A stretch of 64,000 nucleotides of DNA from a bacterium UBA2214 (GTDB lineage Bacteria > Zhuqueibacterota > Zhuqueibacteria > Residuimicrobiales > Residuimicrobiaceae): assembly GCA_002327255.1 (NCBI GenBank), contig DCUM01000165.1:40427-104426 (forward strand). Reading direction: 5' to 3'. Of the stretch, positions 30,127 to 63,959 are shown in pieces. Each line of letters begins with the position of its first letter. The stretch's first letter is position 1. Below the pieces are notes generated by a model. The model did no database searches. It saw nothing but the letters and a program-made list of their open reading frames with translations, and was not told the origin of the DNA. A program made the position numbers and the translations under genes.

Positions 30127-31545
30127 CTACAAATAATAGCGTTCGATCAGTATGTACGACGCCCAGGCCAGACTCACGACAACGCCCAAAACGCCGGCGA
30201 GTATCCAGGCCCGTCCGGGCCTGACGCGGCGATGCACGAAGTGGTTCTGAAAGAGCAGCCAGAAAAAAGGCGCCGCGGGAATAAAGTATCTTCCCGAGAT
30301 ACCGTGCACATAGGCATCCCCCACCGGAGAATTGACCAGATAGAGTGCCAGGGCGGTGACGCCGGCGACACCGGACACCACCAGGGCGAGCACGATGCGC
30401 TGCCGCACAGAAAGGCTGCCTTCGTGATTGAGAACGGCGGCAACGGCAATGAGCAGTAAAAAAACCGCAATAATCGGCAGCGGCAACAGGGTATCGAGCC
30501 ATCCCAACTGTCCGACATGGGAGCGGATATAGAACAGCTTAAACACCCAAAAAGAACGCAGCGCAGCGCCGATAAAGAGCATGGGGCTGGCCACAACCGC
30601 CTGCGACTGTTTGTCATAGCTGGCCCAGGGTTCCAGCCAGTTGAGATCCTGTTGCGCCAGGGACTTCCATCCCCAGGTGATGGCGAGCGCCGCCAGCACC
30701 ATGAGGATCCATAACATCCATTGCCTGCGCCGGCTGGCGAATTTCTGCGCCGGCAGCAGCAGGAATACCACGGCAAAGAGGGCAAAACCCGGTTTAGAGA
30801 AAGCGATCACCAGTGTCAACAAAAACAACCCTCCGTACTGGGGCCGGCTCAATACGCCCGGATCGTGCGCGAATTTGAGGGTGCAGGCCAATAGCAGAAA
30901 ACAAAAGGCATTGATAAATCCATCCTGATGCACGGCCCCGGCGAGAAAAATGCTCATCGGCATCAGCGCAATCAGGGCCATGACCCATTTCCCGGTGGGC
31001 GTCAGGCGCAGGGCGCTGACCATCACCACCAGCCACAGCGCGAGATGGGCGAAACGTCCCAGATACATCATCACCAGGGGCGATACGTTCCCTGTTTTTC
31101 CGATCCAGATGGCCACAATGGCCGGCAGATAGGCCGGCGGTGGATAGATGGCGGAGGCTGAAAATTCATAAAAGGCCTTCTCCTCCGCCTGCAACGGCAG
31201 CCGCAAATAGTGCCATACTTTATCCAGGTCCTGACGCTGATCGCGTGAATGGAAGGCCATGCCGGGATTGATGCGATCCATGGTTTCGATCACGCTGACG
31301 GGCAGGGAATCCCCCATGGTGTTCTCATGCTTGATCGCAAAGAGCCGGCCATCGGAGAGCTGATAGGCGCGGCAGAAGTGGCGGTTTTCGTCCGGCGCCT
31401 GAAAGGGGGGCGTGATCAGCGCCCACAGGATCGAAAAGAGCGCGCCGATGATCAAAAAGAGCTGCGCCGGCGCGCGCCCCGTGCCCAACCAGGTCATGAG
31501 GGCCTGCCTGGCAGTATGACTTCTTGACAATACCTGGTTTTTCAT
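30127..31545 (-). CDS. DUF2142-like polytopic membrane protein (GT-C-like, putative glycan-transferase accessory protein)
   Basis: Start taken at MKNQVLSR. Roughly 12 predicted TM segments. First periplasmic loop carries PFQAPDENRHFCRAYQLSDG. 4-bp overlap with the upstream GT-C gene. Confidence 0.5.
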   Translation of the reverse strand: MKNQVLSRSHTARQALMTWLGTGRAPAQLFLIIGALFSILWALITPPFQAPDENRHFCRAYQLSDGRLFAIKHENTMGDSLPVSVIETMDRINPGMAFHSRDQRQDLDKVWHYLRLPLQAEEKAFYEFSASAIYPPPAYLPAIVAIWIGKTGNVSPLVMMYLGRFAHLALWLVVMVSALRLTPTGKWVMALIALMPMSIFLAGAVHQDGFINAFCFLLLACTLKFAHDPGVLSRPQYGGLFLLTLVIAFSKPGFALFAVVFLLLPAQKFASRRRQWMLWILMVLAALAITWGWKSLAQQDLNWLEPWASYDKQSQAVVASPMLFIGAALRSFWVFKLFYIRSHVGQLGWLDTLLPLPIIAVFLLLIAVAAVLNHEGSLSVRQRIVLALVVSGVAGVTALALYLVNSPVGDAYVHGISGRYFIPAAPFFWLLFQNHFVHRRVRPGRAWILAGVLGVVVSLAWASYILIERYYL

Positions 31546-33341
31546 GGTTCGCGCACCTTGAATATCTTGATTTCGGGGCCGGGATGCTGCGGGGTCGGTT
31601 TGAGGTGATAGATCAGATCGGCATAGGTGTCGATCTCCGCATAGGCTTTGCGCTCGGCGAGGATGCCATCCTCCTGAATCGGCCTTTTCCACAGCTTGTC
31701 GCTGACTATGAGATACTCGGCGTCGTGGCGGCGCACATACGCCTCGTTCACAGAGTCGGCAAAGGTGAAATTGACGTTATGCACCGCATAGCCGGCCAGC
31801 TCGAGCTCGGGCGTATACTGTTCGCGGAGAATGCGCGCCTCCTGCGGCAGGTTGGCGACCGCCCAGTTATAGGCCAGTTTTCGCGTCTGGGTTTTGAGCA
31901 GGTAGGCATCAAACGCATAACTCTTCTGCAGCATGGAAATCGCCGGTATGAGCAGAAAAACGGCCACCATTCCCGCCAGGACGCCGGCCCGGGCGACGGC
32001 GGGACGGATTTTCAGCGCCAGCCAATCCATCGCGCGCACGATCGCCAGTCCGGCCCAGAGGGCGAGGATAGGCAGCATCGGCACCATGTAGCGGTCGAAC
32101 ATGAGTCGCCACGATCCGAGATAGAAATAATAGGTCAGGGCGTAAACGGCGACAACGATCCAGCTGATTTTCGCGCGCCACAGACTGAGCAGCAGCCCCG
32201 CCACGGCGGCGGCCATCAGAATCGTGCCGAAATTATCGTGCAGATAGAAAAAGTTGGTGATGTAACCGGGCGCCGACGCGGCGAACATGCCGCTCCAGCT
32301 CGACTGACTGATGACCATCTGGAAGAGAAAGTCATGCAGGAAGGCTTTATGGTCGAGAATGGCATAGGGCGTGGTCACGAAAAAGGCGAACACGGCAACA
32401 CCCACCAGGAGCAGAATGCGCCGGATTTCCGGCAGCCAGAGTCGCAGGGTATAGCCGAGCACCATCACACCGGCAAAGACCACAGCCGCCAGTTTGGGCG
32501 CCATGGCGTGGACGCGCGGGACGATCTCGTCGAAATATTTGATCCACAACTCGACGCGAATGGTATTGAGCAGCATACCGGCCCAGTGCTCAAAATGATG
32601 CAGCAGCAAAAAGAGCGCGGTCGCCAGAAAGGCAGCGATGGCCGCCGTTATCAGCAAGCGGCGCCCGGCACGCCACTCCCGGCTGAGAATGGACAACCAT
32701 TGCAGCTGATGGGTTTTGGCGACTGCATGGAGATGCGCGGTCAGAATGGCCAAAAAGACGACCGCTCCCGGGATTTTGATCGAAACGGTCAATCCGAAAA
32801 AGAGACCGGTGAGTACATACGCTGCGGTCGTACGTTCATCGACGAGCCGCAGCGTAGCCCAAAGCGTCAGGATGAGAAAAAACGTCAGCGGCACATCCGT
32901 GGTGGCAAAATGGCTGTGGATGACGTGCAGGGGGCTGACCGTGAGCAGAAAAGCCGCCACCAACCCGACGCGACGATCGTACAGCTTCCGGCCCAGGCGC
33001 GCCGTCGCCCACAGGCTGGCGAGGCCGAAGAGCACCACGGTCACACGGCAAATCGTATAGAGGGTTGAGAGGTCGTCGCGGCCGCTGAAAAAGAGGAAAT
33101 AGATGCGCTCGATGAGGTACATGATGTACATGAGCAAGGAGGGATAGAGAAAATTATGCGGATTGAAATCTCCGCCAAAGAACTGGCGCGTGGCCAGCAC
33201 CAGCACCCATTCATCATTGTGATAGGCCATGGGCAGACCGAAGCGGATGCCGAGCAACCGCAACAGGGCGCCGAGCACGAGCAACAGGCCGAGCACCCAT
33301 CCCGCCAGGTTGCCATCCTTTTTCCCGCTGCGATCGATCAT
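31542..33341 (-). CDS. GT-C-fold membrane glycosyltransferase, PMT/ArnT-like (GT39/GT83)
   Basis: 599 aa, polytopic. First extracytoplasmic loop carries HNDE...FLYPSLLMY (the DE/loop-1 motif of ArnT/PMT enzymes). Soluble C-terminal domain. Confidence 0.6.
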   Translation of the reverse strand: MIDRSGKKDGNLAGWVLGLLLVLGALLRLLGIRFGLPMAYHNDEWVLVLATRQFFGGDFNPHNFLYPSLLMYIMYLIERIYFLFFSGRDDLSTLYTICRVTVVLFGLASLWATARLGRKLYDRRVGLVAAFLLTVSPLHVIHSHFATTDVPLTFFLILTLWATLRLVDERTTAAYVLTGLFFGLTVSIKIPGAVVFLAILTAHLHAVAKTHQLQWLSILSREWRAGRRLLITAAIAAFLATALFLLLHHFEHWAGMLLNTIRVELWIKYFDEIVPRVHAMAPKLAAVVFAGVMVLGYTLRLWLPEIRRILLLVGVAVFAFFVTTPYAILDHKAFLHDFLFQMVISQSSWSGMFAASAPGYITNFFYLHDNFGTILMAAAVAGLLLSLWRAKISWIVVAVYALTYYFYLGSWRLMFDRYMVPMLPILALWAGLAIVRAMDWLALKIRPAVARAGVLAGMVAVFLLIPAISMLQKSYAFDAYLLKTQTRKLAYNWAVANLPQEARILREQYTPELELAGYAVHNVNFTFADSVNEAYVRRHDAEYLIVSDKLWKRPIQEDGILAERKAYAEIDTYADLIYHLKPTPQHPGPEIKIFKVREP

Positions 33342-34297
33342 GACGGCACTTCCCGCAGCCAGCCGTTTTCTTCCAGTACCCGCCGCAACTCCCGGACAAA
33401 AAGAGCCGTGTACTGGCGGGCGCCCGTTTCATTCATGTGAATGACATCGGAGAACAGAGCGCGCTCCTGAAACTCGGGATACGATTCGCTCGTCATCTCG
33501 ATGAACGGCACCTGCAGCTCATCCGCCAATGCCCGATAAAAATCGAGGATCTGGCGTATCTTCGCAGAAGTGGGCGTCACCGCCGGAGAATAACAGAACA
33601 CCACCGCAACCCCGGCATCCCGGGCGGAGCGCACAAATTCCCTGAGAATCCCGATACGATAGGGATCGTACGGCACCCGGGGATTGGCATCGAGATCATC
33701 GGGGAAATGGTTGGTATCGCGGAATCTGGTTTGGCCGATGAAGACGAAACCGTTGTCCATGCCTGCGGCATCCTTGAAATAATTATCGGCGATGCTCAGC
33801 AGGCGGGAATTATAGCGGTAGAGCCGGGAGCAGAGTTTGAGTTCTTCACCGGGTTTGCCCCGGGTCAGCAGCTTGCGCACCTGCGGATAATCGGCATAGG
33901 GCGCCAGCGCGCTCATGCGTCCGAGTTCCTGGTCAAGCGGTTCGGATTGGGTCACATAATTGGGCAGCAAATCGAGGAGAATGAGCCGGGGTTTACAGGT
34001 TTCCAGCACCATCTGCTCGAGGGCATAGGCATAGAGGAGGTATTGGCCGTTGGCGCCGGCATTGAAAACGCTCAGCTGCAGAGTGTCCTGCATGATCGAG
34101 GGTATGTAGGAGCGGAAGGCGCGTGAGGAGCCCAGGATGACCACGTCATGGGGCCGGCTCAGCAACCAGTTCTCCTTGGACCAGTTTTCGCCGTACAGGG
34201 TGCGCTTGAAAAAATAGCCGATCGCCGATCCCAGGCCGAAATCGACCGCCGCCAGAATCAGAAGGAAAGCCAGCAATTTGAGCAGAAACCGGCGCAT
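33338..34297 (-). CDS. DltD/AlgJ-like SGNH-type protein, probable partner of the MBOAT acyltransferase
   Basis: N-terminal TM anchor, then DVVILGSSRAFRSYIPS... This gene is translationally coupled to the upstream MBOAT gene, the usual AlgI/AlgJ or DltB/DltD arrangement. Confidence 0.45.
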   Translation of the reverse strand: MRRFLLKLLAFLLILAAVDFGLGSAIGYFFKRTLYGENWSKENWLLSRPHDVVILGSSRAFRSYIPSIMQDTLQLSVFNAGANGQYLLYAYALEQMVLETCKPRLILLDLLPNYVTQSEPLDQELGRMSALAPYADYPQVRKLLTRGKPGEELKLCSRLYRYNSRLLSIADNYFKDAAGMDNGFVFIGQTRFRDTNHFPDDLDANPRVPYDPYRIGILREFVRSARDAGVAVVFCYSPAVTPTSAKIRQILDFYRALADELQVPFIEMTSESYPEFQERALFSDVIHMNETGARQYTALFVRELRRVLEENGWLREVPS

Positions 34298-34301
34298 GGC
34301 T

Positions 34302-35741
34302 CTAGAATTGAAAATAGATGAATTGACTGCCATTGAAGATACCCATGAGTAAAATCACCACCACGGTGGTCACATAAGCGGCCCAGCGCAGCGGCCGGGA
34401 GCGTTCGTCAAGAAAACGTCCCAGGGGGATGTTTTCGTGAAAAATATCCACTGCCAGCAGCATGGCCACCGCCATCAGCCCATAGACGAATTGATCCGTC
34501 GCGGGTACATAGAGTGAAGTGTAATCGCTTGAAAATATTTTCGCAACAATGTGCCGGGCATCACCGAGGCTGTTGGCACGAAAGAAAATCCAGGCAAAAT
34601 TGGCCAATTGATAGGTGATAAAGAGGGCCAACGCCTGGCGCGCCTTGGCGGGGATATGCCAGGCTGCTGCCCGTTCATCGCACCACGCTTTGCTAAAACG
34701 CGAGCTGACGGCATAGAGTCCATGGAGTGCGCCCCAGATCATGAAGGTCCAGTTGGCGCCGTGCCAGATGCCGCTGACGAAAAAGACGATGAACAGATTC
34801 AGATACATCCGCGGCACCGCAACGCGGTTACCGCCGAGCGGAATGTAGACGTAATCGCGAAACCAGGTCGAGAGCGAGATATGCCAGCGGTGCCAGAATT
34901 CCGGAATGGAGCGGGAGAAATAGGGCCGTTCGAAATTACGCATCAGTTGAAATCCCATCACGCGCGCGGCGCCGATGGCGATATCGGTATAGCCGGAAAA
35001 ATCACAGTAAATCTGAAAGCCGAAGAGATAGGTGGCGACCAAAAGCGTCAGGCCGCTGTGGGGATCGGGATTGTTATACACCGCATTGACATAGATCGCA
35101 AGGCGGTCGGCGACGACGAGCTTTTTGAAAAATCCCCACAGCATCAGCCGCAATCCGGAAGCGACGCGCGCGCCATCCCACTCCACCTTGCGCAGGAATT
35201 GCGGCATGAGGTTGCTGGCGCGTTCGATGGGACCGGCGACGAGCTGGGTGAAAAACGTCACAAACAAGGCGTAACGGCCAAAATGGCGCTGTACTTCCAT
35301 TTTATCACGATAGACATCGATGGAATAACTCAACGCCTGAAAGGTATAAAAAGAGATGCCGACGGGCAGCAACACCTCGAGCAGTGGCATTTGCAGCGGC
35401 CAATTGATAAAATCAGCCGCATCCTGCAAGGAACGCGAGAAGAAATTGAAATATTTGAACGTGAAGAGGATGCCGAGATTGATGACCAGACTCAACAGCA
35501 AATATTTGCGCCGCGGCTTGCGCTCTTTATGCCGGCCCATCCGCAACGCGCTCCAGTAGGATACCACCAGCGTGATCATCAACAACACGACATATTCCGC
35601 TTTCCAGCACATGTAAAAATAGAGGCTGGCACCCAACAGCAGCACCCAGCGATGGCGGTGCGGCAGCGCAAAATAGGCCACAACCACCAAGATGAAAAAC
35701 CAGACAAATTGCATGGAATTGAAGAGCATGCTCGATCTCAA
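34302..35741 (-). CDS. Membrane-bound O-acyltransferase (MBOAT; AlgI/DltB family)
   Basis: 479 aa polytopic protein with the MBOAT catalytic His block FWHRWHISLSTWFRDYVYIPLGGNR and an N-terminal MQFVWFFILVVVAYF typical of AlgI/DltB. Confidence 0.8.
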   Translation of the reverse strand: MRSSMLFNSMQFVWFFILVVVAYFALPHRHRWVLLLGASLYFYMCWKAEYVVLLMITLVVSYWSALRMGRHKERKPRRKYLLLSLVINLGILFTFKYFNFFSRSLQDAADFINWPLQMPLLEVLLPVGISFYTFQALSYSIDVYRDKMEVQRHFGRYALFVTFFTQLVAGPIERASNLMPQFLRKVEWDGARVASGLRLMLWGFFKKLVVADRLAIYVNAVYNNPDPHSGLTLLVATYLFGFQIYCDFSGYTDIAIGAARVMGFQLMRNFERPYFSRSIPEFWHRWHISLSTWFRDYVYIPLGGNRVAVPRMYLNLFIVFFVSGIWHGANWTFMIWGALHGLYAVSSRFSKAWCDERAAAWHIPAKARQALALFITYQLANFAWIFFRANSLGDARHIVAKIFSSDYTSLYVPATDQFVYGLMAVAMLLAVDIFHENIPLGRFLDERSRPLRWAAYVTTVVVILLMGIFNGSQFIYFQF

Positions 35742-36151
35742 GATTTAGAGTGGGAGGATTCGTTCTCTCGCGATTTGGCCTGTGAGAGCTGCCAGATCTG
35801 CTGGCGCAGCAAGGCGACCTCCTGAGCCAGTTTGGTCAGCTGCTGCTCCGATTTGCACGCCTTGATCGAAAAGTAGAGACTGACCAGGGTGAATAGGCCG
35901 AAGATGATCGGAATCATCAAGGCGGGCGCATAGGCAATCCCTGCCAGCACCGCCAGTCTTTCCAGCAGTTCCCGATTGGACGAAAAGAGGATGAGCAGCA
36001 CGGGAATGATCATCCACGCCAGGGCAAATCGTTCGCTGAGCTTGCGCTGCCGCACCAGTTGTATGATGAAAAGCAAAAAAAGCAGGCCGGCGCCGATGGC
36101 CAGATATAAAATACGGTTGCCGTACATATAGGTGTGCGCTGTATCCGGCAT
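35738..36151 (-). CDS. Small DUF2304-like membrane protein
   Basis: About 137 aa from MPDTAHTYMYGN. Three or four TM helices plus a C-terminal coiled coil. Sits directly downstream of a GT2 gene, the typical DUF2304 context. Confidence 0.4.
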   Translation of the reverse strand: MPDTAHTYMYGNRILYLAIGAGLLFLLFIIQLVRQRKLSERFALAWMIIPVLLILFSSNRELLERLAVLAGIAYAPALMIPIIFGLFTLVSLYFSIKACKSEQQLTKLAQEVALLRQQIWQLSQAKSRENESSHSKS

Positions 36152-36152
36152 A

Positions 36153-36878
36153 CTATCTCCTCCGTCTGATTCTGACGATGATGATGGCAAAAATGACCTT
36201 GATCATGTACAGGAGCGTATTCAAGCCCTGGATCGAGGACTGGCCATGCTGACGTTCCTGCATGACGATGGGAACCTCGCCGAGCTTGTAGCCGTTCATG
36301 AGGAGTTCGATGGCGCATATCGGTTCCGGGTACTCCTGCGGATAATTACGGCGCAGATATTCGAGCGCGCGGCGGTTGTAGGCGCGAAAGCCCGAGGTGG
36401 GGTCGCTCACCCACTGCCCGGTGCCGAGGCGGATAATGGCGCCGAGCACACCACCGCCGATGCGGCGTGCCAGCGAAGAGACAATCTGGTTGCCCCTGGC
36501 GTAGCGCGAACCGATGACAGCATCCCAGCCATTTCTGCTCATGGCGTCGAGCAGGAGACCGATCTGTTGCGGCGGGTGCTGGCCATCGCCATCCACCTGA
36601 ACCGCGACGTCGTGGCCGTTTTCCCAGGCGTAGAGAAAACCGGTCTGCACGGCGCCGCCGATGCCGAGATTCACGGGCAGCGATACGTGGTTGATGCCCT
36701 CTTCGCGCAGAATGGCGGCGGTGGTATCCGTGGAACAATCGTTGACCACCAGCACCTCGATGCCGGGGTGGGCGGCAGCGGCCGCGTGCGCCACGGACGC
36801 GATACTCTTTTCCTCATTGAAGGCGGGAATGATCACCAGAATGCGAGGCGTGGCCATGGTCTTTTTGTTACCATCCAT
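36153..36878 (-). CDS. GT2 glycosyltransferase (polyprenyl-phosphate sugar synthase-like)
   Basis: ILVIIPAFNEEKSI...VVNDCSTD...VQVDGDGQHPP (DxD-type motifs). Confidence 0.75.
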   Translation of the reverse strand: MDGNKKTMATPRILVIIPAFNEEKSIASVAHAAAAAHPGIEVLVVNDCSTDTTAAILREEGINHVSLPVNLGIGGAVQTGFLYAWENGHDVAVQVDGDGQHPPQQIGLLLDAMSRNGWDAVIGSRYARGNQIVSSLARRIGGGVLGAIIRLGTGQWVSDPTSGFRAYNRRALEYLRRNYPQEYPEPICAIELLMNGYKLGEVPIVMQERQHGQSSIQGLNTLLYMIKVIFAIIIVRIRRRR

Positions 36879-36888
36879 AACAGGACTC

Positions 36889-37629
36889 TCAGGGTTGATA
36901 AATACGAAATTGTCCCAACTTCATTTTCTGAAGCCGGAAGGTCAAGGCCGTGCGCAAGACACCGAATCCATATTGGACGCTGCGACGGAAATTGATGGAC
37001 GAGGCCTCGGGAAAGTATTTGGTCGGACAGGAGACCTCACCGACGTTGAAATTGAAATAGATCGCCTGGGCGATCATTTCGTTGTCAAAAACAAAATCGT
37101 TGGAGCAGTGCTGCAAGGGCAAAGCAGAGAGCAGCTCCCGGGAAAATGCCCGGTAACCCGTATGGTATTCCGAGATTTTTTGTCCCAGGAGAATATTTTC
37201 AAAAAGGGTCAAAAAGCGGTTGCTGATGTATTTATACACCGGCATGCCGCCTTTGAGCGCACCGCCGGAGATGATGCGCGAGGCCAACACCATATCGTAT
37301 TGGCCGATGGCGACCATCGACGCCATGGCGGTGACGAGTTTGGGGGTGTACTGGTAATCCGGATGCAACATGACCACCACATCCGCGCCGCGGTTGGTCG
37401 CCTCACGATAGCAGGTTTTTTGATTGCCGCCATACCCCAGATTCTTTTCGTGGACAATCGTGGGAATGTTCAGTCTTTTCGCCACCGCCACCGTTGCGTC
37501 GGTGCTGGCATCATCGACCATGATCACTTCATCGACGATGTCATGGGGTATTTCGGCATAAGTTTGTTCCAGCGTTGCCGCCGCATTATAGGCCGGCAAA
37601 ACGACAATTACTTTCTTTCCGTGAATCAT
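36889..37629 (-). CDS. GT2 glycosyltransferase
   Basis: [14 protein letters not shown]...IMVDDASTD...HPDYQY, a GT-A fold. Confidence 0.75.
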
Positions 37630-37650: not shown

Positions 37651-38748
37651 TTAATGACATTCGTCCAGCAGACGATCGAATAGTGCTTCAAACTCCGCGA
37701 CTTGATGTTGCACGGTAAAGTGCGACTCCACCCGTTGCCGGCCGGCGCGCCCCATGCGCGCACGCAGTTCCGCATCCGCCGCGAGACGGTTCATGGCGCG
37801 CGCCAGGGCCTCGGGCTCCTCCTTCGCAACCAGCAGGCCGGTTTCGCCCTCCACCACCAGTTCGACCGTGCCTTCCACGGCGGTGGCGATGACGGGTTTG
37901 CCGGCGGCCATGGCTTCGAGTACGACATTGGGAAAACCCTCCCAGAGTGAGGGCAGGATAAAGACGTCAAAGGCCTCAAGCAGCCGCTGCACATCATCGC
38001 GCCGCCCCAGGAATTCGACCGCCGCTGCGATGCCCAACGCCCCAGCCTGCGCTTGCAGCGCCGGGCGCAGATCGCCGTCGCCGGCAAAGTGCCAGCGCGC
38101 CCCGGGATGTTGCGCCAGCACCGCGGGAATCGCCTTGAGCAGATGGGTGTGTCCCTTTTGATGCACCAGCCGTGCCACGGTTCCAAAACAGACGCCGGTC
38201 GACGGCGTCGTGCGCGGCGCCGGACGGAACTTGTCGAGATCGACGCCATAATAAATCGTCGAAAGGGCCTGCGGGTTCTGCCCCCGGTCTCGTATGATAA
38301 AGGGATGAATGGAATTGGAGACCGCAACCACATGGGTAAAACGGCGCGCCAGACGCCGGTAGGCCCATTTCTGATACCCTGACAAACGCCCGGTGATCAC
38401 TTCCCAGGAGACGAGTACCCCGGGCCGATAGAGGCAGGTGGCCAGCGCGGCCATGATGTCCGCATAAAAAAGCGTGCTCATCACCAGGTCGGTACGGTAT
38501 TTTCGCATGCACCCGGCGAGGCGCACAGGCAGGCTCAGATCAAAGCCGCAGCACTTTTTCAATACTTCGACCGGCAAACCGAGCGCCCGAAAGTGCTCCT
38601 CCAGCGCCCCACCCTGGCCCACACTCACGATGCTGATGTCGTATTTATCGCGGTTGAGGCGCTGCGCCAGCTCGAGCAACTTCAGCTCGCCGCCGCCGAC
38701 GCCAAAGCCATTGACGACCAGCAGAATTGATTTTTTCCCGGCCTGCAT
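37651..38748 (-). CDS. GT4 glycosyltransferase
   Basis: GT-B. N-terminal LLVVNGFGVGGGE and a C-terminal EX7E-like block (EGFPNVVLEAMAAGKPVIAT). Confidence 0.75.
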   Translation of the reverse strand: MQAGKKSILLVVNGFGVGGGELKLLELAQRLNRDKYDISIVSVGQGGALEEHFRALGLPVEVLKKCCGFDLSLPVRLAGCMRKYRTDLVMSTLFYADIMAALATCLYRPGVLVSWEVITGRLSGYQKWAYRRLARRFTHVVAVSNSIHPFIIRDRGQNPQALSTIYYGVDLDKFRPAPRTTPSTGVCFGTVARLVHQKGHTHLLKAIPAVLAQHPGARWHFAGDGDLRPALQAQAGALGIAAAVEFLGRRDDVQRLLEAFDVFILPSLWEGFPNVVLEAMAAGKPVIATAVEGTVELVVEGETGLLVAKEEPEALARAMNRLAADAELRARMGRAGRQRVESHFTVQHQVAEFEALFDRLLDECH

Positions 38749-44381: not shown

Positions 44382-44465
44382 TCCCTGTCTCCTTATCCTG
44401 CTACCATTGATTGTTTTCAAACACGATTCAAAACGATGAACGGGTTTGCCCGTCCGCCCTTCGTC

Positions 44466-54039: not shown

Positions 54040-54094
54040 GCATCTATTGCCATTTTGCAAAAAAAAACCAGAAACTAACCCTCAAACCGGTTTA
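54040..54094 (-). terminator. Candidate weak intrinsic terminator/attenuator at the 3' end of the aminotransferase gene
   Basis: On the minus strand AAACCGG...(15-nt loop containing the TAG stop)...CTGGTTT, followed by T9. The stem is AT-rich, so this is weak. Confidence 0.3.
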
Positions 54095-55175: not shown

Positions 55176-55185
55176 AAAAAAAACC

Positions 55186-56859: not shown

Positions 56860-56948
56860 CTCAAATAACTCTTGAGCTAGAGAACTAGCGCCGTGTCAAT
56901 CAACGAACCCTCCCCCCTGCGTCGTCATCAGAACACACGCTGCAACCA

Positions 56949-57956
56949 TCACGACCAATAGTGTGCTTTGTGCTGTTTGTAAAAGGCAACCGTCTTTTCG
57001 AGACCGGTTTTCATGTCGGTGCGATAGCGCCACCCCAATACCGCGCGAATCTTGCGGTAATCGGCGTAAAAATCGCCGATATCGATGCGCTTCTTCTCGG
57101 CCGGAAAGGGCACCATCTCGAAATTGCCGCCCCCGGCCGTTTGCAGCAGCAGTTTGACGAAATCAGCCAGCATCATGGGCTCATCACCGCCGAGGTTGTA
57201 GATGCTGCCGTTGCAATCATCGAAGGCGGCAGCCAGACAGAAAGCATCGACCACGTCATCCACATAATTAAAATCGCGAATCTGCTTGCCATCGCCGAAG
57301 AGGCGGATGGTTTCGCCCTCGATGGCCTGACGGATGAAGACGCTGATAAAACCCTGGCGATTGTGTTTCATCAGTTGCCGCGGCCCATAGGTATTGGTCA
57401 GCCGCAGCGAAGTGGCACGGATGCCGTAGACGTTGTTGTAGAGGATGTGATACCACTCGCCGGCCATCTTGTTGATGCCATTGACGTCGGTCGGGTGCTG
57501 CGGATGTTTTTCATCCACCGGCAGATAGTCCGGTTTGCCGTACTGCTGCCGGGTGCCGGCAAAGACGATCTTCACATCCGGATTGTTGTGGCGGCAGGCT
57601 TCCAGCATGGAGAGCTGCGAGCGGCAGTTGATCTCGAGATCGGTGTAGGGATCCTCCATGCTGTCGATGTGACTCACCTGTCCGGCCAGATTGAAGATGA
57701 AATCCTGATCTTTGACCAGATAATTCATGCTGTATTGATCACGGATATCCGCGATGTTGATCTGTACCTGCTTTTCGACCCCCGCAACGTTGAAGAGATT
57801 GCCCCCATACTGCGGAAGCAACGAATCCACGATCAATACCCGGGCATCATACGATACCAGCCGGTGCGCCAGATTGCTGCCGATGAAACCCAGGCCGCCG
57901 GTGATCAGGCACTTCTTGCCCCTGAACGTTTTCGGCAGTTGCTCACGCTTTGGCAT
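56949..57956 (-). CDS. NAD-dependent sugar-nucleotide epimerase/dehydratase (SDR; UDP-glucuronate decarboxylase / 4-epimerase-like)
   Basis: Rossmann motif CLITGGLGFIGSNLAHRLV. Catalytic region VNGINKMAGE (YxxxK). Confidence 0.8.
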   Translation of the reverse strand: MPKREQLPKTFRGKKCLITGGLGFIGSNLAHRLVSYDARVLIVDSLLPQYGGNLFNVAGVEKQVQINIADIRDQYSMNYLVKDQDFIFNLAGQVSHIDSMEDPYTDLEINCRSQLSMLEACRHNNPDVKIVFAGTRQQYGKPDYLPVDEKHPQHPTDVNGINKMAGEWYHILYNNVYGIRATSLRLTNTYGPRQLMKHNRQGFISVFIRQAIEGETIRLFGDGKQIRDFNYVDDVVDAFCLAAAFDDCNGSIYNLGGDEPMMLADFVKLLLQTAGGGNFEMVPFPAEKKRIDIGDFYADYRKIRAVLGWRYRTDMKTGLEKTVAFYKQHKAHYWS

Positions 57957-58668
57957 TACGGCCCTCCCCGCGTACGACCAGCCGCAACCAGAGTTTTGAA
58001 AAATCCCGGGCGACGTGATAGAGACGGCTAAAGTTGAAGAACTGCGACTTGCCGGAAGAGCGGAAAAAATGGTTGACCCCGACCTCGGCGAATTTGCTTC
58101 CCTGACGGCTGATCTTGTGAATCATCTCCACGCAGATGGTGCCACTGTTGGAGGTCAATTCGATGGTGTCGAAAATCTTGCGGCGCATGAGCCGGAAGTC
58201 GCAATCCACATCGGTGATCGGCAGGGCAAAGAGCAGTTTGGCGGTGTACTGATAGATCTTGCCGAGCACGACGCGATAAAACGGGTCGTGGCGTTTGATC
58301 TTGAAGCCGTTGACAACATCGACGCCATCGTTCATGGCAGCGGCGAGGAGTAACAACTGGCGCACATCGTACTGCGCATCGCCATCGGTGTAAAAAATAA
58401 AATCCTTGCGCGCTTCCTTGAAACCGGTGCGGAGTGCGCCGCCGTAGCCGCGATTTTGTTCATGGTGAATGACGCGAATCTGCGGAAATCGTGACTCCAA
58501 AAAAGTGAGGATTTCCTGGGTCTTTTCTTCGCTGCCGTCATCCACCAGGATCACTTCATAGTCGTCGGTAATTTTCTCCGCAGCGGTGATGGCCTGGGCC
58601 GCCATCGAGGTGATGGTGCCCCAATCATTGTAGACCGGGAAAAATATCGACAGAGAAGACAATTTCAT
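57943..58668 (-). CDS. GT2 glycosyltransferase (polyprenyl-phosphate HexNAc synthase-like)
   Basis: Start at MKLSSLSIFFPVYNDW. DxD block ILVDDGSEEKT...YTDGDAQYD. The start overlaps the stop of the downstream deacetylase gene (ATGA-type coupling). Confidence 0.75.
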   Translation of the reverse strand: MKLSSLSIFFPVYNDWGTITSMAAQAITAAEKITDDYEVILVDDGSEEKTQEILTFLESRFPQIRVIHHEQNRGYGGALRTGFKEARKDFIFYTDGDAQYDVRQLLLLAAAMNDGVDVVNGFKIKRHDPFYRVVLGKIYQYTAKLLFALPITDVDCDFRLMRRKIFDTIELTSNSGTICVEMIHKISRQGSKFAEVGVNHFFRSSGKSQFFNFSRLYHVARDFSKLWLRLVVRGEGRNAKA

Positions 58669-58672
58669 GGCG

Positions 58673-59578
58673 CTATCGGGAAGAGTGTTCATCGATTTCT
58701 CGCTTGGTGTTAAGGTGCGCACGGATGGCGATCCGTTTGATGCCGGCTTGTTGCACGGCGCCTTTTAGCGTTTCATCACAGAGCAGGCGCTGCTCCTCAA
58801 ATCTATGCCATTCTATACTGCCTTTGGCGCCAGTTTGCGGATGGAATGCCGGATGCACCATCCATTCGTTGACGCCGCTGCCCAGGGAGTGCAGCAAGTC
58901 CATGAAGGTTCGCTGTTTGTCCCGGCTGGCATACCAGACCATGCCGCGAAAATGGCCGGCGTGCGCAAAAGAACGATAATAGCGCCGGCTGGCCCAGAGG
59001 GCCATCAGGCCCTGCTGCAGGGCAGCGCCAAACCCGCGGCCCCCCCGGCAGCGGCCTTCACTGCGGAGCGAAAGCTGTCGCACCCACCTCAGACCATATT
59101 CGCGGGCCAGCGGCGCCACAACGGCGGCGACGCGCGGCAAGAGATGAATGTGATGGTGGCTGTCGAGATGAGCGACCTGGAGTCCCGACGTCAGCAACCG
59201 CTCCATCTGCGCCCGGAATTCTCTTTCCATCGCACCCTGAGTCACCCGCCCGGCGAGAAGGCGCTGCGTCATGATCCACTTGCCCGGAAATAGCCCATTC
59301 CCGTTGGTCATCCTGGAGGTATCCGCAGCGTGTGCAAGCGCTCCGCCCGATGTGAAGTTGAGATGCAAGCCGACGTCCCATCCTTCACAGCATGCCCATG
59401 CACAAGCCTGTTCAAAAGCCGGGCCATTGGCCATCATGGACGTGCTGGTCACCATGCCGGTCTGATAACAGCGTTTGATGCCTTCGTTGACGGCCTGAGA
59501 CGCGCCGAGATCATCGGCGTGCACCACCAGGAGCGCTTCGCCGCCGCGCCGGAAGGCCTCCGCCACGGGCGCCTCCAT
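58673..59578 (-). CDS. YdjC/ChbG/HpnK/NaxD-family carbohydrate deacetylase
   Basis: N-terminal LLVVHADDLGASQAVNEGIKRCYQTGMVTSTSMMANG is the YdjC-superfamily metal-binding signature (D-D...H). LDSHHHIH provides the second His cluster. Confidence 0.75.
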   Translation of the reverse strand: MEAPVAEAFRRGGEALLVVHADDLGASQAVNEGIKRCYQTGMVTSTSMMANGPAFEQACAWACCEGWDVGLHLNFTSGGALAHAADTSRMTNGNGLFPGKWIMTQRLLAGRVTQGAMEREFRAQMERLLTSGLQVAHLDSHHHIHLLPRVAAVVAPLAREYGLRWVRQLSLRSEGRCRGGRGFGAALQQGLMALWASRRYYRSFAHAGHFRGMVWYASRDKQRTFMDLLHSLGSGVNEWMVHPAFHPQTGAKGSIEWHRFEEQRLLCDETLKGAVQQAGIKRIAIRAHLNTKREIDEHSSR

Positions 59579-60909
59579 CAGATGTCTTTTTCCCTGGGCG
59601 TCTTTTTTGCGCCCATCTGGGCGGTAAAAAAATCGTGCAAATCATCCAGGCATTTCGCGGCATCGAACACAGCAGCGACGCGCTTGCGCGCCGCTTTGCC
59701 GATTCTGGCGGCTTTGTGCGGCGTTTCCGCCAGCTCGCGGATCACCCGGGCCAAGGCTTCGGGGCTGGTCTCCTCGAGGAGGATTCCGCTTTTGCCATCC
59801 TCGATCAGTTCGGGGATGCCCGAAACCGGCGTTGATATCACCGGGACTTCCATGGCCATGGCTTCGGCGATGACATTGGGAATGCCGTCGCGATTGCCGG
59901 TTTCGTCGATGATGCAGGGCAGCACAAAAAGTGCGGCCTCGCGGTAGCGCTCGATCACTTCACTGGGCGGCATGTAGCCGCTGATCTCGACGACATCCAT
60001 GAGATGGTTGAGGCGGATGAAGAGTTCCAGCCGCGGCCGTTCCGGGCCGTCACCGATGATCAGACATTTGAAATCAAACTGTTGATCCCGCAAAATTTTG
60101 CAGGCGTGCAGCAGGACCGCCATGCCCTTTTTGGGCACCAGCCTGCCGACGGAGAGAATGGCGGGCACGGATGTTCCCTGCCTGCGTCCGGGCGTCATGG
60201 CGCGCCAGTCGGCGCCATGGTAATTGACGAAAATTTTCTCCGCATCCAGTTCCGGAAAATGCTCGAGGAGATAACGTTTGTTGTACCGGGTACAGGTGAC
60301 AATGAATTGGGCGCGCGCCAGTTTCTTGTCGAAAATGACTTGGGGGGTGAAGATATCATAGGCGTGGGCCGTAAAACTGAAAGGGACATCGATCAGCATG
60401 GCCGCCAGCATGGCCAGGCTCGCCGCGGAATCGGCAAACTGGGCGTGAATTATGCGGTAGCCTTTGCCGAGCAACCGGAAGGCGGTCGGCACGATGAGCA
60501 CAAAATGGAGCAGCACATTCTGGCGCTGCTCCTTATCCAACTCGCGTTTATGGACAGCGACTTGCCAGAGTGAGCCGATCAACGCGGCGCCGCGCGTACG
60601 GTTGCGCCAGGCGAACCAAAAGGTGCGCCACCAGGTCCGCGGATGACGAAACAGGAAATAAAAATGCTTTTTAACCAGATCATGGGCGCGAACCGATGGA
60701 AGAATGTAGTGCGTACCCTCGATCAGCTCCGGCACTTCTTTATTCTCCAGTCCCTGCGGCGGACGGTTCAACGCATAGGTGTCCAGGGTCAGTCCGCGCG
60801 CCCGCAAACCGATCACTTCATTGATGATGAAGCGTTCGGAGAGGCCCGGGAAAAAATTGAGAAAGAGTGCGACGCGCTGTCCGGTGCGTTTTTTCCTTGC
60901 AGCACACAT
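59578..60909 (-). CDS. GT4 glycosyltransferase
   Basis: 443 aa GT-B with LPCIIDETGNRDGIPNVIAEAMAMEVPVISTPVSGIPE. Confidence 0.75.
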   Translation of the reverse strand: MCAARKKRTGQRVALFLNFFPGLSERFIINEVIGLRARGLTLDTYALNRPPQGLENKEVPELIEGTHYILPSVRAHDLVKKHFYFLFRHPRTWWRTFWFAWRNRTRGAALIGSLWQVAVHKRELDKEQRQNVLLHFVLIVPTAFRLLGKGYRIIHAQFADSAASLAMLAAMLIDVPFSFTAHAYDIFTPQVIFDKKLARAQFIVTCTRYNKRYLLEHFPELDAEKIFVNYHGADWRAMTPGRRQGTSVPAILSVGRLVPKKGMAVLLHACKILRDQQFDFKCLIIGDGPERPRLELFIRLNHLMDVVEISGYMPPSEVIERYREAALFVLPCIIDETGNRDGIPNVIAEAMAMEVPVISTPVSGIPELIEDGKSGILLEETSPEALARVIRELAETPHKAARIGKAARKRVAAVFDAAKCLDDLHDFFTAQMGAKKTPREKDI

Positions 60910-60926
60910 ATGAAAACGATCTCCCC

Positions 60927-61928
60927 CTACTCGGTGATATATTCAGAATAGCGTTTTTGATAAAAAGCGACGGTGCGGGCGATGCCGCTCTTCAAGTCAA
61001 CCTGCGGTTGCCAGCCCGTATACCGCGCCATTTTTTCGAAAGATACCACAAACTTGCGAATGTCGATGCTCTCCCGCTCCGGCGGAAACGGAACATGCAC
61101 CCAGGTGCCTTTTCCCACCCCCGCGATGACGCCGCGCACCATATCGAGAAAGATCGTCTCGATCCCCGAACCGATCATGAATACTTGCTGATTGGTCTCA
61201 GCGCACAACGCCGCGCGGACAAAGGCGTCGACCACATCATCGACGTGGATATAGTCGCGGGTCTGCAATCCGTCGCCATAGACAGTGATCGCCTTTTCGT
61301 GCATGGCATTGCGGATGAACCAGTTGAGGATGCCGTAAAATCCGTGATGCATCTGGCAACGCGGCCCGTAGACGTTGTTGAGGCGCAATGAAGTCACCGG
61401 AAATCCGTATATTTTTCCGAACAGGAAAAGATACTTCTCGGCGGCCATTTTGTTGATGCCGTAGACATCGGTGGGGTGTTGCGGATGCGCCTCGTCGACG
61501 GGCGTATAGAGCGGCTCGCCGATCTGACCGCGGCTCCCCGCGAACACGACGCGGGCGCAGCGATTGTGCGCCGCCAGGGCGCGGCAGAGATTCAGGGTGC
61601 CGTCGCAGTTGATGGCCACATCGAGCGCGGGATCGGACATCGATATCTCGCGGCCGACCTGGGCCGCGAGATGAAAAATATAATCCACTTCGAGAACATG
61701 GGTGCTGAGCAACCCATAATCGCGGACATCGCCGCGCACGAACTGCACCTGCTCCCTGATCTCCTTGATATTCGCCGGATTCCAGCCATAAGGATCCAGA
61801 CAGGCATCAAAAATGGTTACCTGGGCGCCTTCCTGAACCAGGCGCTGCGCCAGATTACTGCCGATGAAACCCAGCCCTCCGGTGATGAGTACCTTTTTGC
61901 CATTCATTTGGGAGAAATCCACCTGCAT
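60927..61928 (-). CDS. NAD-dependent sugar-nucleotide epimerase/dehydratase (SDR), paralog of the 56949-57956 gene
   Basis: Start at MQVDFSQMNGKKVLITGGLGFIGSNLAQRLV. Shares long identical blocks with the other SDR (HPQHPTDV.GINKMA.E, SLRL.N.YGPR, DGLQ/GKQ.RD..HVDDVVDAF). Confidence 0.8.
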   Translation of the reverse strand: MQVDFSQMNGKKVLITGGLGFIGSNLAQRLVQEGAQVTIFDACLDPYGWNPANIKEIREQVQFVRGDVRDYGLLSTHVLEVDYIFHLAAQVGREISMSDPALDVAINCDGTLNLCRALAAHNRCARVVFAGSRGQIGEPLYTPVDEAHPQHPTDVYGINKMAAEKYLFLFGKIYGFPVTSLRLNNVYGPRCQMHHGFYGILNWFIRNAMHEKAITVYGDGLQTRDYIHVDDVVDAFVRAALCAETNQQVFMIGSGIETIFLDMVRGVIAGVGKGTWVHVPFPPERESIDIRKFVVSFEKMARYTGWQPQVDLKSGIARTVAFYQKRYSEYITE

Positions 61929-61929
61929 G

Positions 61930-62988
61930 TCAACGCATTTCCTCGATAATATGTGCCAATGATTCGCCAATCCGCTGCAGGGTGCAGTGTTCCCTGAAGA
62001 CGCGATATCCTCCAGCCGCGATACGCTCGCGCAGTGCCGCATCCTCTCTGAGTTTGAGGATGGCTTCCGCCAACGCCGCCGGATTGGCGCGATCGATCAA
62101 ATAGACGCTTTCCCCGTGTTGCAGCAGTTCCTGCACCGGCTCATTGCGCGCTGTAATTAAAGGTTTTGCCATGGCGATGGACTCCACCACCTTGTTGGTC
62201 GTCACGCGCAAAACCCGGTCGTTATCGCCAAAAATGCCGAGGCACAAATCCGCCTGCGCGATGCGGTTCGCCAATTCGGCGTATGAGACCGGATCATAAA
62301 ACCTCACATTGGTCACATCCAATGATTTTGCCAGTCTTTGATCCTCGGCCCAGGTGATGCCGCGGCCGATGACGCGAAACTCGAGATCCTTTTCAGCGCG
62401 CAACAGGTGCGCCGCCTCGAGGATATACTTGATGCCATGGAACGGAGCATATTCACCATGGAAATGAACCAGAAATTTATCCGTATCCTTGCTGACGACG
62501 CGGGGATAAATGATGGTATCATCCACCGCCAGAAAAATGCGGCGCATCCGCGCCGGTTCCACGGCAAAGGTACGGCAGAAAAAATCGATGTGCGCCTGCG
62601 TCTCGAGGACGACGACATCCGACATGCGGTAGGAGAGCCGGTCGCTCCAGCCATAAAGACGCGCTTTGAGGCTTCCGGGTCTGGCTATGCCGCGATCATA
62701 AACCATGGTATCCAGCGTGGTGATGTACATATCGAACAGCAGCGGCTTGCGGGTCACCAGACGCACAAACGGCAACAGTATCTGACCATAAAAGCCGACG
62801 ATGACCAGGTCGCAGTGCCGGGCCTGACGCAGGACCCGCCACACCAGTCCCGGATAATGCCGGAAGGATCGATCCGGAGGAAAACAACCGATGACTTCAT
62901 ATCCCTGGCGTTCCAGGGCAGCACAGAGAATATGAGTGCGTGAATAGGAGCGTTCGCGGCCAGCCACGAAGAGAATGCGCTTTTTCAA
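61930..62988 (-). CDS. GT4-like (GT-B) glycosyltransferase
   Basis: 352 aa. [18 protein letters not shown]-terminus. C-terminal [23 protein letters not shown]. Confidence 0.65.
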
Positions 62989-63959
62989 ACCCTGGCACCC
63001 GGCTCTTTCTCACCCTTCTCCAGTTTTAGATCGAGCTTGCGAATGCGATAAAGGGTGCTTTCGATCAAACGACGGTTAAATCCAATCAGATCGGCGAGGA
63101 GGCCGATGATGAAAACCTGAAAACCAACGATGAGCAGGACGGCGGCAAGAATCAGGGACTGGATGTGCCCCATGCCGCCCGTGGTGATGTAAAAAAAGAG
63201 AAAGCGCAAACCGATGAGAAAGCCGGCGCCAAAGACGATCGCGCCGATGTAGGAAAACATCTTCAGGGGCTCATACATGGAATAGATGCGCGTGATGGTG
63301 GTCATGGAACGTTTGATATAATTCCAGTTGCCGCTGAAGAGACGCGATTCGCGCAGTTTGGCGTTGGTACGCACCGGCACATGGGCGATGGCGAGATTCT
63401 TTTTGCCCGCCTGGATGATGGTTTCGAGCGTATAGGTAAAACGGGACACCACATTCATCTGCAGGGCGGCTTCGCGGCTCAGTGCCCTGAATCCACTGGT
63501 TGCATCCGGAATCGCGGTGTCGGAAACCTGGCGCACCACCCAGCTGCCGAGACGCTGCAGCCGTTTTTTCGTCCAGGAAAAATGGTCAATGCCGACAGTA
63601 TTGCGGTCACCGACCACCAGCTCGGCTTCACCGCACAGGATCGGCCGCACCAGCTGGCGGATGTCTTCGCCGCAGTACTGATTGTCCGCATCGGTATTGA
63701 CGATGATATCGGCGCCGAGGCGCAGGGAAGCGTCCAGTCCCACCATGAAGCCGTTGGCCAGTCCCTTGTTCTTGGTGACACGGACGATGTGGTTCACGCC
63801 GTGGCGGCGGGCCACTTCCGCCGTGCCGTCACTGCTGCCGTCATCGATGATGAGGAATTCGATGGTATCGATGCCATCGATCTGCCGGGGCAGATCGGCC
63901 AGGGTCAGCGGCAGGGTCTCCGCTTCGTTGTAACAGGGTATTTGGATGATCAGTTTCAC
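62985..63959 (-). CDS. GT2 polyprenyl-phosphate glycosyltransferase (DPM1/GtrB/ArnC-like) with C-terminal TM helices
   Basis: [12 protein letters not shown]...[10 protein letters not shown]...NTDADNQY (DxD), plus two C-terminal TM helices ([15 protein letters not shown]...[20 protein letters not shown]) typical of lipid-phosphate sugar synthases. Confidence 0.8.

Follow-up and report, generated by a model that had tools for sequence, protein, structure and literature searches.

The window analysed here, a 64,000-nt stretch of the genome of bacterium UBA2214 (assembly GCA_002327255.1, contig DCUM01000165.1, forward-strand positions 40,427 to 104,426), carries at 30127-63959 an unbroken series of 28 co-directional minus-strand open reading frames (ORFs). 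This locus, conserved in its lineage, probably serves to assemble a heavily decorated envelope glycan of a KSB1/Calditrichota-type diderm, by means of three-component periplasmic glycosylation (a synthase loading a single sugar onto a lipid phosphate, a flippase and a periplasmic GT-C transferase) that would operate several times in parallel. Over the whole locus, which reaches beyond the window, the count came to about seven candidate GT2 synthases and about seven GT-Cs. An earlier inspection of the letters and ORFs (the sequence-only reading) had recognised here the logic of periplasmic glycosylation from lipid-linked monosaccharides; as far as sequence comparison and structure prediction can tell, this is supported by GT-C folds and motifs, synthase-like GT2s and linkage between GT2 and GT-C genes.

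The series was as compact as the sequence-only reading had described. Each of its approximately 28 minus-strand genes was found again by the ORF scan, in place or a few codons away. Public gene calls for the source contig (ENA ERZ27315072, k141_1140936, 274 kb) agreed with these ORFs, except for shorter starts in three genes, called at 30127-31497 (DUF2142), 51344-53053 (PMT2_d) and 57943-58692 (GT2_c). With called coordinates, 13 of the 27 junctions overlapped and eight were spaced by 25 nt or less; these 21 junctions agree with genes said to be mostly overlapping or translationally coupled. Only two intergenic gaps in the window part of the locus exceeded 90 nt (480 and 221 nt). Pfam gathering cut-offs were passed by 26 of the 28 products, the exceptions being U557 (no match) and the SGNH partner (sub-threshold). 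Families found were DUF2142, PMT_2 (four), Glycos_transf_2 (four), GT4 (six), Polysacc_synt (two), Wzy_C, DegT, Epimerase (two), Carbam_trans_N/C, Methyltransf_11, MBOAT, YdjC and DUF2304, which bears out the four GT2s, six GT4s, two Wzx flippases, Wzy/ligase-like protein, sugar aminotransferase and two short-chain dehydrogenases/reductases (SDRs) proposed before. The locus had been expected to run off the right edge of the window and indeed continues on the same strand for at least 10 kb past it on the source contig.

Six GT-C transferases had been proposed in the window. Pfam confirmed five of them (four PMT_2 proteins and the DUF2142 protein), while the sixth, at 55186-56859, was recognised by predicted fold only. 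The PMT_2-type proteins (all features given with window positions here lie on the minus strand) are PMT2_a (31542-33341; Pfam PMT_2 2.7e-15, PMT 5e-9), PMT2_b (45801-47045; PMT_2 2.7e-17), PMT2_c (47042-48691; PMT_2 2.9e-16, PMT 1.3e-7) and PMT2_d (called at 569 aa, 51344-53053; PMT_2 2.2e-17). Their PMT_2 scores of 57.4, 63.9, 60.5 and 64.2 bits stood well above the gathering cut-off of 26.1. PMT2_a displayed about 11 transmembrane (TM) segments, a C-terminal soluble domain and an NDE motif after the first TM segment (TM1), where PMT2_d carried ADE; PMT2_c displayed HPDE. PMT2_b is a short form devoid of the C-terminal domain, with a weak NCBIfam match to the LA_3751/3752 family.

The sixth transferase, U557 (557 aa, 55186-56859), had no Pfam or NCBIfam match, and its profile found no match among PDB sequences; it thus falls outside the ArnT/PMT_2 families at the sequence level. 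The TM scan counted about nine segments. Its assignment as an ArnT-like GT-C came from a confident AlphaFold model (pLDDT 91.8, pTM 0.91) built from a 32-sequence alignment. When compared to PDB with Foldseek, this model matched ArnT best (5f15, E 1.4e-7, TM-score 0.53-0.55), followed by STT3, ALG12, AftB, ALG9 and EmbA, all of them GT-Cs. The alignment showed a V-P-[E/D]-S-D-F-F-D motif after TM1, with V35, P36, S38, D39, F40, F41 and D42 invariant. Homologues fell into 37 clusters at 90% identity, and a search of 1.84 billion proteins retrieved 545 family representatives (E<=1e-3). Of nine members sampled, eight lacked any Pfam match and the remaining one barely reached PMT_2. Full-length homologues with 23-24% identity also occurred in archaeal Methanoperedens metagenome-assembled genomes (MAGs; loci L025 and L026), devoid of the bacterial gene context.

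The DUF2142 protein (called at 456 aa, 30127-31497; Pfam DUF2142 230 bits) likewise yielded a confident model (pLDDT 94), whose Foldseek matches had weak E-values but were nearly all GT-Cs, with ALG12 on top. In GT-Cs of known structure (ArnT, PglB, PMT), catalytic residues sit after the first TM helix. An Asp/Glu motif directly after TM1 was present in all seven GT-C candidates of the locus, including a TMEM260-like one encoded upstream of the window. Together, fold and motif evidence ruled out a transporter identity for these polytopic proteins, none of which fell into an unrelated transporter family, the outcome that would have spoken against the sequence-only reading. Recent tandem duplication was ruled out both for the GT-Cs (at most 40% identity, over short local stretches) and for the GT2s (at most 31% identity between paralogues). 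Such low identities point to old paralogues with distinct specificities.

The four GT2 proteins of the window had been proposed as polyprenyl-phosphate sugar synthases, and their closest relatives agreed with this. For all seven GT2s of the locus, the best NCBIfam matches were synthases of undecaprenyl-phosphate (Und-P) or dolichyl-phosphate (Dol-P) sugars (PpgS, AglJ, ArnC, PgfS and a haloarchaeal Dol-P hexose transferase); the best PDB sequence matches of the four window proteins were Pyrococcus Dol-P-mannose synthase (DPMS), three ArnC structures and GtrB. In GT2_a, GT2_c and GT2_d the aligned part was not confined to the GT-A core but reached the interface-helix region. GT2_d (62985-63959; Pfam GT2 8.6e-22), a candidate of GtrB/ArnC/AglJ type, matched AglJ (NCBIfam 4e-36), ArnC (PDB 7e-15) and GtrB (1e-10) over its full length and displayed TM helices at residues 238-256 and 269-287, as in GtrB/ArnC. 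Three such genes stand in tandem, GT2_d being the third and the first two lying beyond the window edge; one of the upstream two-TM GT2s scored 194 bits on the ArnC model. GT2_c (57943-58692; Pfam GT2 1.1e-29) is ArnC-like, both in NCBIfam (3.7e-23) and in PDB (3e-20, residues 10-231). GT2_a (36153-36878; Pfam GT2 1.1e-24) is PpgS/GacI-like, with PpgS as its best NCBIfam match (4.3e-25), DPMS (3e-16) and ArnC (3e-13) as its best PDB matches over residues 11-228, and one C-terminal hydrophobic segment. GT2_b (36889-37629; Pfam GT2 4.3e-22; NCBIfam AglJ 4e-17, PpgS 3e-16) is the weakest assignment of the four.

The GT2_a gene is directly followed, with a 38-nt overlap, by one coding for a small DUF2304 membrane protein of GacJ/Rv3632 type (35738-36190; Pfam DUF2304 7.9e-19; four TM segments). 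The same pair recurred in three related loci (L029 to L031), and both genes occurred close together in two others (L019 and L024). GacJ is a DUF2304 protein that stimulates GacI, and Rv3632 stimulates PpgS (10.1101/180810).

A further group of genes, contiguous at 54075-59566 and co-conserved, assembled the parts of an Arn-type pathway. It is composed of a YdjC-family carbohydrate deacetylase, analogous to NaxD/LgmC (58673-59566; Pfam YdjC 1.2e-57; PDB chitooligosaccharide deacetylase 3.6e-18), the ArnC-like GT2_c, SDR_a from the nucleotide-sugar 4,6-dehydratase/epimerase family (56949-57956; Pfam Epimerase 1.5e-50; NCBIfam dTDP-glucose 4,6-dehydratase 1e-43, below cut-off), the ArnT-fold U557 and a PseC/ArnB-like sugar aminotransferase of the DegT family (54075-55175; Pfam DegT 7e-125; NCBIfam PseC 2.5e-79 and ArnB 9.7e-71, both below cut-offs). 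The YdjC gene always adjoined GT2_c or U557 in relatives. NaxD is itself a YdjC-family enzyme, which removes the acetyl group from Und-P-GalNAc, after which the amino sugar is transferred by a GT-C.

Conservation was examined by means of the U557 profile with one genome per species, which provided 24 loci, the ORFs of which were mapped to window genes by phmmer and blastp. In the comparison of gene order with relatives suggested by the sequence-only reading, synteny was kept in more than 10 MAGs labelled KSB1 or Calditrichota, with orthologues 30-87% identical. In at least seven MAGs the order was YdjM–GT2–GT2–GT2_d–GT4_f–SDR_b–GT4_e–YdjC–GT2_c–SDR_a–U557–DegT–PMT2_d–(Wzx_b)–GT4_d–PMT2_c–PMT2_b; the five loci that reached far enough continued with Wzy_C and the carbamoyltransferase, and several others held rearranged subsets. 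Despite internal reordering, YdjC, GT2_c, SDR_a, U557 and DegT remained adjacent (L011, L015 and L017), and in the distant relatives L019 and L024 PMT2_c was flanked by GT2 and DUF2304 genes. A stand-alone module was found at 10001-16003 of L029/L030, where genes for DUF2142, an NTP transferase, an SDR, DegT, a hexapeptide acetyltransferase, GT2 and DUF2304 follow one another; its content suggests a three-component system reduced to essentials, for an N-acetylated amino-deoxy sugar. This module, the cohesive YdjC–U557 group and the GT2/DUF2304 genes around PMT2_c link the GT2s to the GT-Cs. Order maintained at 30-87% identity indicates a core glycan of the lineage instead of a variable O-antigen locus, and a hypervariable O-antigen island was ruled out on the same ground.

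The downstream half of the locus was kept in L031 at 44-79% identity, in the order GT4–GT4–GT2_b–GT2_a–DUF2304–MBOAT–SGNH–PMT_2–…–DUF2142–…–GHL15. This locus holds three extra genes, namely one of 527 aa with no Pfam match between PMT_2 and DUF2142 (L031 8415-9998) and, between DUF2142 and GHL15, genes for an SDR and a DegT protein (L031 11457-13619); the window lacks them and displays the 480-nt gap (29647-30126) in their place. In relatives, YdjM invariably stood at the head of the tandem of three GtrB-type GT2s. Identities measured in L009, L013 and L017 were generally lower for the GT-Cs (29-70%) and YdjC (30-41%) than for cytoplasmic enzymes, mostly 58-87% identical (SDR_a 75-87%; GT4_e down to 42%).

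From the families, folds, motifs, gene linkage and conservation described above, we infer a scheme, including its substrates, the sequence of its steps, the acceptor and the roles given to the flippases. The six cytoplasmic GT4s would extend a primer linked to undecaprenyl diphosphate (Und-PP), GT4_d, which is WchF/Cps2T-like, acting on the primer itself, and the initiating phosphoglycosyltransferase would be encoded elsewhere, as is GacO in streptococcal rhamnopolysaccharide systems. Wzx would export the lipid-linked oligosaccharide and the Wzy_C protein would polymerise or ligate it. In parallel, each of the four GT2s in the window (seven in the whole locus) would load one sugar onto Und-P and, after flipping, the six window GT-Cs (seven in all) would add single sugars to the glycan at the periplasmic face. 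GT2_a and DUF2304 may form a synthase pair of GacI/GacJ or PpgS/Rv3632 type, probably serving DUF2142 and/or PMT2_a. The branch YdjC–GT2_c–SDR_a–U557–DegT resembles Arn, Lgm and Flm pathways; a 4-keto/4-amino (N-acetylhexosamine-type) nucleotide sugar would be made and moved to Und-P, YdjC would de-N-acetylate the sugar on its carrier and the ArnT-like U557 would transfer the resulting cationic amino sugar. Periplasmic O-acylation by MBOAT and SGNH, carbamoylation and methylation would complete the structure, which may be trimmed by the GHL15 and GH172 hydrolases encoded in the flanks.

Several observations weigh against this multi-module scheme. No GT2 reached an NCBIfam equivalog cut-off, scores being far below, and for GT2_b the PDB match to DPMS (1.4e-8) covered the GT-A domain only. 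The sequence-only reading would have suffered from GT2s devoid of C-terminal TM helices and synthase signatures. Best matches were all of synthase type and GT2_d has two TM helices, but the TM scan found none in GT2_b, GT2_c or an upstream GT2 of 253 aa. By analogy, this does not refute a synthase assignment; TM-less GT2s stay compatible with it because the PpgS and haloarchaeal models are equally short (226 and 213 positions) and because GacI works through its DUF2304 partner GacJ. A PDB sequence search with three of the PMT_2 proteins gave no matches. Flippases are few: the two Wzx proteins would have to serve up to seven lipid-linked donors and an oligosaccharide, no small flippase of GtrA, SMR or ArnE/F type was found in the locus, where gaps leave no room for one, and the Wzx_b gene, located between PMT2_d and GT4_d, was absent from the closest relatives (L005, L006, L007 and L009). 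It was fragmented in L013 and present in the more distant L015, L017-L021 and L024. Bac_transf, Glycos_transf_4, Wzz and Poly_export had no Pfam matches in the locus genes or the 10 kb upstream; an initiating phosphoglycosyltransferase, a chain-length regulator and an outer-membrane exporter were thus lacking from the approximately 46 kb seen, counted from the GHL15 gene (see below) through the upstream 10 kb, although the locus may extend further. The acceptor could alternatively be a protein or lipid A/core.

The gene call of PMT2_c also sits uneasily with the scheme. Its TM1 is encoded in frame (about 48724-48692) upstream of the called TTG start, and the frame stays open back to a stop at 48784-48782 with no ATG, GTG or TTG in between; the only upstream ATG (48720) is in another frame. 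Homologues carry 15-30 extra N-terminal residues. The true start is probably located upstream of the called TTG, which suggests a non-canonical start (ATC or CTG), a 1-nt indel or an assembly error.

If the acceptors were proteins, the PMT_2, TMEM260-like and DUF2142 GT-Cs would move single Und-P-linked sugars to Ser/Thr residues of secreted, S-layer or type IX secretion system (T9SS) cargo proteins, in the manner of actinobacterial Pmt and Ppm1, while Wzy_C would be a PglL-type O-oligosaccharyltransferase moving the GT4-built oligosaccharide onto proteins. PMT2_a and PMT2_c also exceeded the cut-off of the Pfam protein mannosyltransferase model (PMT), the Wzy_C domain is common to PglL-type oligosaccharyltransferases, T9SS genes occur nearby and conservation throughout the phylum recalls the general O-glycosylation loci of Bacteroidota. 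The upstream GT-C resembles TMEM260, a protein O-mannosyltransferase (PMC10214176). Wzx_b scored 208 bits on the NCBIfam 'O-glycosylation flippase' model, yet this is far under the cut-off of that model (720 bits) and a generic MOP model fits better. Pfam found no MIR or TPR acceptor-binding domains in the window locus genes, U557 is closest to ArnT, the acceptor of which is a lipid, DUF2142 and DUF2304 systems characterised to date decorate polysaccharides, and MBOAT/SGNH, carbamoyl and methyl decorations are typical of the latter. Protein O-glycosylation was therefore considered unlikely. Lipopolysaccharide (LPS) synthesis, with Wzy_C as WaaL ligase, the GT4s building core or O-units and ArnT-like GT-Cs placing cationic or neutral sugars on lipid A/core, seemed quite unlikely. 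It would suit the ArnT-like fold of U557 beside ArnB-, ArnC- and NaxD-like genes, the synteny (lipid A and core structures being conserved within lineages) and the lack of Wzz or export machinery, expected if Lpt exports the product. Yet no Lpx or WaaA/C/F genes were detected by Pfam in the locus or its 10 kb upstream, known systems use one or two lipid A-modifying GT-Cs instead of seven, and WchF-like GT4_d together with the GacI/J-like pair point to an Und-PP polymer.

GT2, GT4, Wzx and Wzy genes are also the standard content of O-antigen loci, and two Wzx genes could mean two pathways, as would be expected from an ordinary strain-variable O-antigen or capsule island, or from a chance juxtaposition of unrelated glycan pathways with no functional coupling between GT2s and GT-Cs. 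This was judged very improbable. Content and order are conserved to an extent that hypervariable O-antigen and capsule loci do not display, most junctions overlap or nearly abut, GT2 and GT-C genes are again neighbours in relatives with a rearranged locus and in the minimal module, and Wza, Wzc and Wzz were absent from the locus and the 10 kb upstream.

A bolder version of the preferred scheme, in which parallel modules decorate an exported glycan, would have the main body of an envelope glycan or lipoglycan, and not only its branches, built periplasmically by about seven GT-Cs in sequence, each with its own Und-P-monosaccharide, and U557 would represent a new CAZy-level GT-C family for a de-N-acetylated amino sugar. 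We hold this to be improbable as a whole. If true, such sequential assembly would be a diderm counterpart, in one operon, of the ALG pathway in the lumen of the endoplasmic reticulum or of mycobacterial lipomannan/lipoarabinomannan (LM/LAM) synthesis. In that case a lipid other than Und-PP could serve as the anchor of the glycan; the locus lacks an initiating phosphoglycosyltransferase, and genes for inositol phospholipids are located 22 kb away. These code for a myo-inositol-1-phosphate synthase and a CDP-alcohol phosphatidyltransferase (5273-6610 and 7043-7699, 433 nt apart), and suggest inositol-phospholipid synthesis.

Decoration by parallel modules, the scheme favoured here, has its nearest functional relatives in streptococcal, lactococcal and mycobacterial systems. 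In the group A carbohydrate side-chain system of Streptococcus pyogenes, GacI/GacJ/GacK/GacL (also S. mutans SccN/P and lactococcal Csd), an Und-PP polymer is decorated by a polytopic GT-C together with a Wzx-family flippase and a GT2 that has DUF2304 as its activator; both also share a WchF/GacB-like GT4 with DUF1972, and in both the initiating enzyme would come from outside the locus. Here, however, the host is a diderm of the Fibrobacteres–Chlorobi–Bacteroidetes (FCB) group, Wzx and Wzy_C stand in place of an ABC transporter, rhamnose genes are lacking, seven GT2s and seven GT-Cs compare with one to three, and carbamoyl, methyl and acyl decorations are added. The parts list of the YdjC–GT2_c–SDR_a–U557–DegT group is that of Arn (ArnB/C/A/D/T), Bordetella LgmABC and Francisella FlmF2/NaxD/FlmK, but a formyltransferase and ArnE/F are missing, U557 lies outside their sequence families and the module is embedded in a large operon of polysaccharide type. 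Mycobacterial arabinogalactan and LAM synthesis (Ppm1, PpgS/Rv3632/Rv3779, Emb/Aft/PimE) likewise employs many GT-Cs fed by polyprenyl-phosphate monosaccharides; GT2_a has PpgS as its best NCBIfam match, PpgS too is accompanied by a DUF2304 protein, and the predicted structures of DUF2142 and U557 are similar to AftB, EmbA and PimE. Yet mycobacteria have these genes dispersed around the chromosome and rely on decaprenyl-phosphate-arabinofuranose or mannose, whereas those described here form one operon in an unrelated diderm phylum, with no evidence in this locus for donors of either sugar.

Gtr-type O-antigen glucosylation and GT136 pentofuranose systems (Mann & Whitfield 2016; Kelly et al. 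2024, PMC11127046) combine a synthase, a flippase and a GT-C acting in the periplasm after polymerisation. They are one- to few-module add-ons, often phage-borne or strain-variable, that diversify antigens, in contrast to the conserved core operon of about seven modules found here, which has no GtrA- or MATE-type flippase. The eukaryotic ALG pathway (ALG3/9/12/6/8/10, with Dol-P-Man/Glc) offers a series of distinct GT-Cs acting after a cytoplasmic GT4/GT-B phase and a flip; the likeness is one of fold and logic only, with no sequence relationship, and the bacterial locus adds a polymerase/ligase and acyl, carbamoyl and methyl decorations.

Three-component periplasmic glycosylation has been described as widespread, and loci with several GT-Cs were noted in Xanthomonas and Bacillus (PMC11127046). 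Searches of the literature on DUF2142, on glycosyltransferases of KSB1/Zhuqueibacterota and on GT-C O-glycosylation in Bacteroidota did not retrieve a description of the locus. The sequence-only reading had called the combination undescribed in FCB-type genomes; this holds for scale and lineage in the literature searched, but the principle was known. The mechanism class is already established and the locus contains no new mechanism. New, as judged from that literature, are the scale (about seven synthases plus seven transferases within a single coupled operon), the fact that an uncultured FCB lineage has kept the operon as a core locus, and the U557 family with its YdjC link.

Lipid-monosaccharide periplasmic glycosylation is usually a one-module add-on that diversifies O-antigens or teichoic acids, the mycobacterial wall being the main exception. 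About seven synthase–transferase pairs in one conserved operon would imply a core envelope polymer structured largely outside the cytoplasm. The locus also offers compact and clonable pairs of divergent GT2s and GT-Cs for work on donor and acceptor specificity, adds with U557 a GT-C family that has no existing model and is tied to a YdjC deacetylase, and provides a genomic marker for the envelope biology of KSB1/Calditrichota.

Among the other genes, both a Wzx flippase and a Wzy/ligase-type protein are present, as in Wzx/Wzy loci. Wzx_a (41169-42605; Pfam Polysacc_synt 2.5e-36) has 13 TM segments, and Wzx_b (49860-51347; Polysacc_synt_3 1.9e-76) reached 280.8 bits on the NCBIfam MOP flippase model, above its 273 cut-off. 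The Wzy_C-domain protein (44466-45791; Pfam Wzy_C 1.1e-18), of polymerase, ligase or O-oligosaccharyltransferase type, displayed about eight or more TM segments and had no match among PDB sequences. The cytoplasmic GT4s are GT4_a (37651-38748; Glycos_transf_1 4e-44; NCBIfam stp2-like 1.5e-64, below cut-off), GT4_b (38748-39977; Glyco_trans_1_4 1e-26), GT4_c (39974-41188; Glyco_trans_1_4 1.2e-29), GT4_d (48760-49863), GT4_e (59578-60909; Glycos_transf_1 1.2e-36) and GT4_f (61930-62988; Glyco_trans_1_4 9.8e-17). GT4_d carries a DUF1972 N-terminal domain (5.5e-17) and resembles Cps2T/WchF (NCBIfam Cps2T 3.4e-50, below cut-off), characterised members of which act on an Und-PP-sugar primer. No GT2, GT4, SDR or aminotransferase had an above-threshold NCBIfam equivalog, so no sugar was assigned.

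Decoration genes were more numerous than the three previously proposed, at least five being present. In addition to YdjC, they code for a NodU/CmcH-type O-carbamoyltransferase (42612-44420; Pfam Carbam_trans_C 4.5e-59, Carbam_trans_N 8.5e-40), a methyltransferase dependent on S-adenosylmethionine (53107-53853; Methyltransf_11 2.9e-17), a DltB/AlgI-like membrane O-acyltransferase (34302-35741; Pfam MBOAT 1.6e-26; NCBIfam DltB 2.3e-45, below cut-off) and an SGNH/GDSL-like, DUF1574-like protein with an N-terminal anchor (33338-34333; sub-threshold Lipase_GDSL_2 1.2e-6 and DUF1574 8e-5; one TM segment). The latter is, judging from these matches, the probable periplasmic O-acyltransferase partner of MBOAT, and the pair was kept in L031. 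A second nucleotide-sugar dehydratase/epimerase family member, SDR_b, was called at 333 aa (60927-61928; Epimerase 2.5e-49).

Beyond the right edge, the contig codes (L003 20-7895) for a polysaccharide deacetylase, the TMEM260-like GT-C, a GH172 (DUF2961) hydrolase with a Big_1 domain, the 253-aa GT2, a STELLO-like protein and YdjM; the two GtrB/ArnC-type GT2s (up1 and up2), each with two C-terminal TM helices, are also located there. At the downstream end, a glycoside-hydrolase-like GHL15 protein with a Golvesin_C domain (27586-29646; GHL15 6.8e-19, Golvesin_C 3.8e-12) is probably a member of the locus, since the same protein type ends the homologous L031. Genes for trigger factor, ClpP and ClpX come downstream of the locus. 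Promoter and terminator scans yielded consensus noise and no operon boundaries, the sigma-70 consensus not being expected to apply in FCB bacteria.

The attribution of the window to an FCB-type genome, made initially from the letters, agreed with T9SS markers in the window and with the labels of its relatives, since the closest U557 and DUF2142 homologues came from MAGs labelled as Calditrichota or as candidate division KSB1. For KSB1, the rank of a phylum, Zhuqueibacterota, in the FCB superphylum has been put forward (PMC11683472). The T9SS-related block (10330-21763) includes an S8 protease with a Por_Secre_tail, a GWxTD protein, PorV, a 1107-aa protein with no Pfam match and a CarboxypepD_reg+Plug outer-membrane protein.

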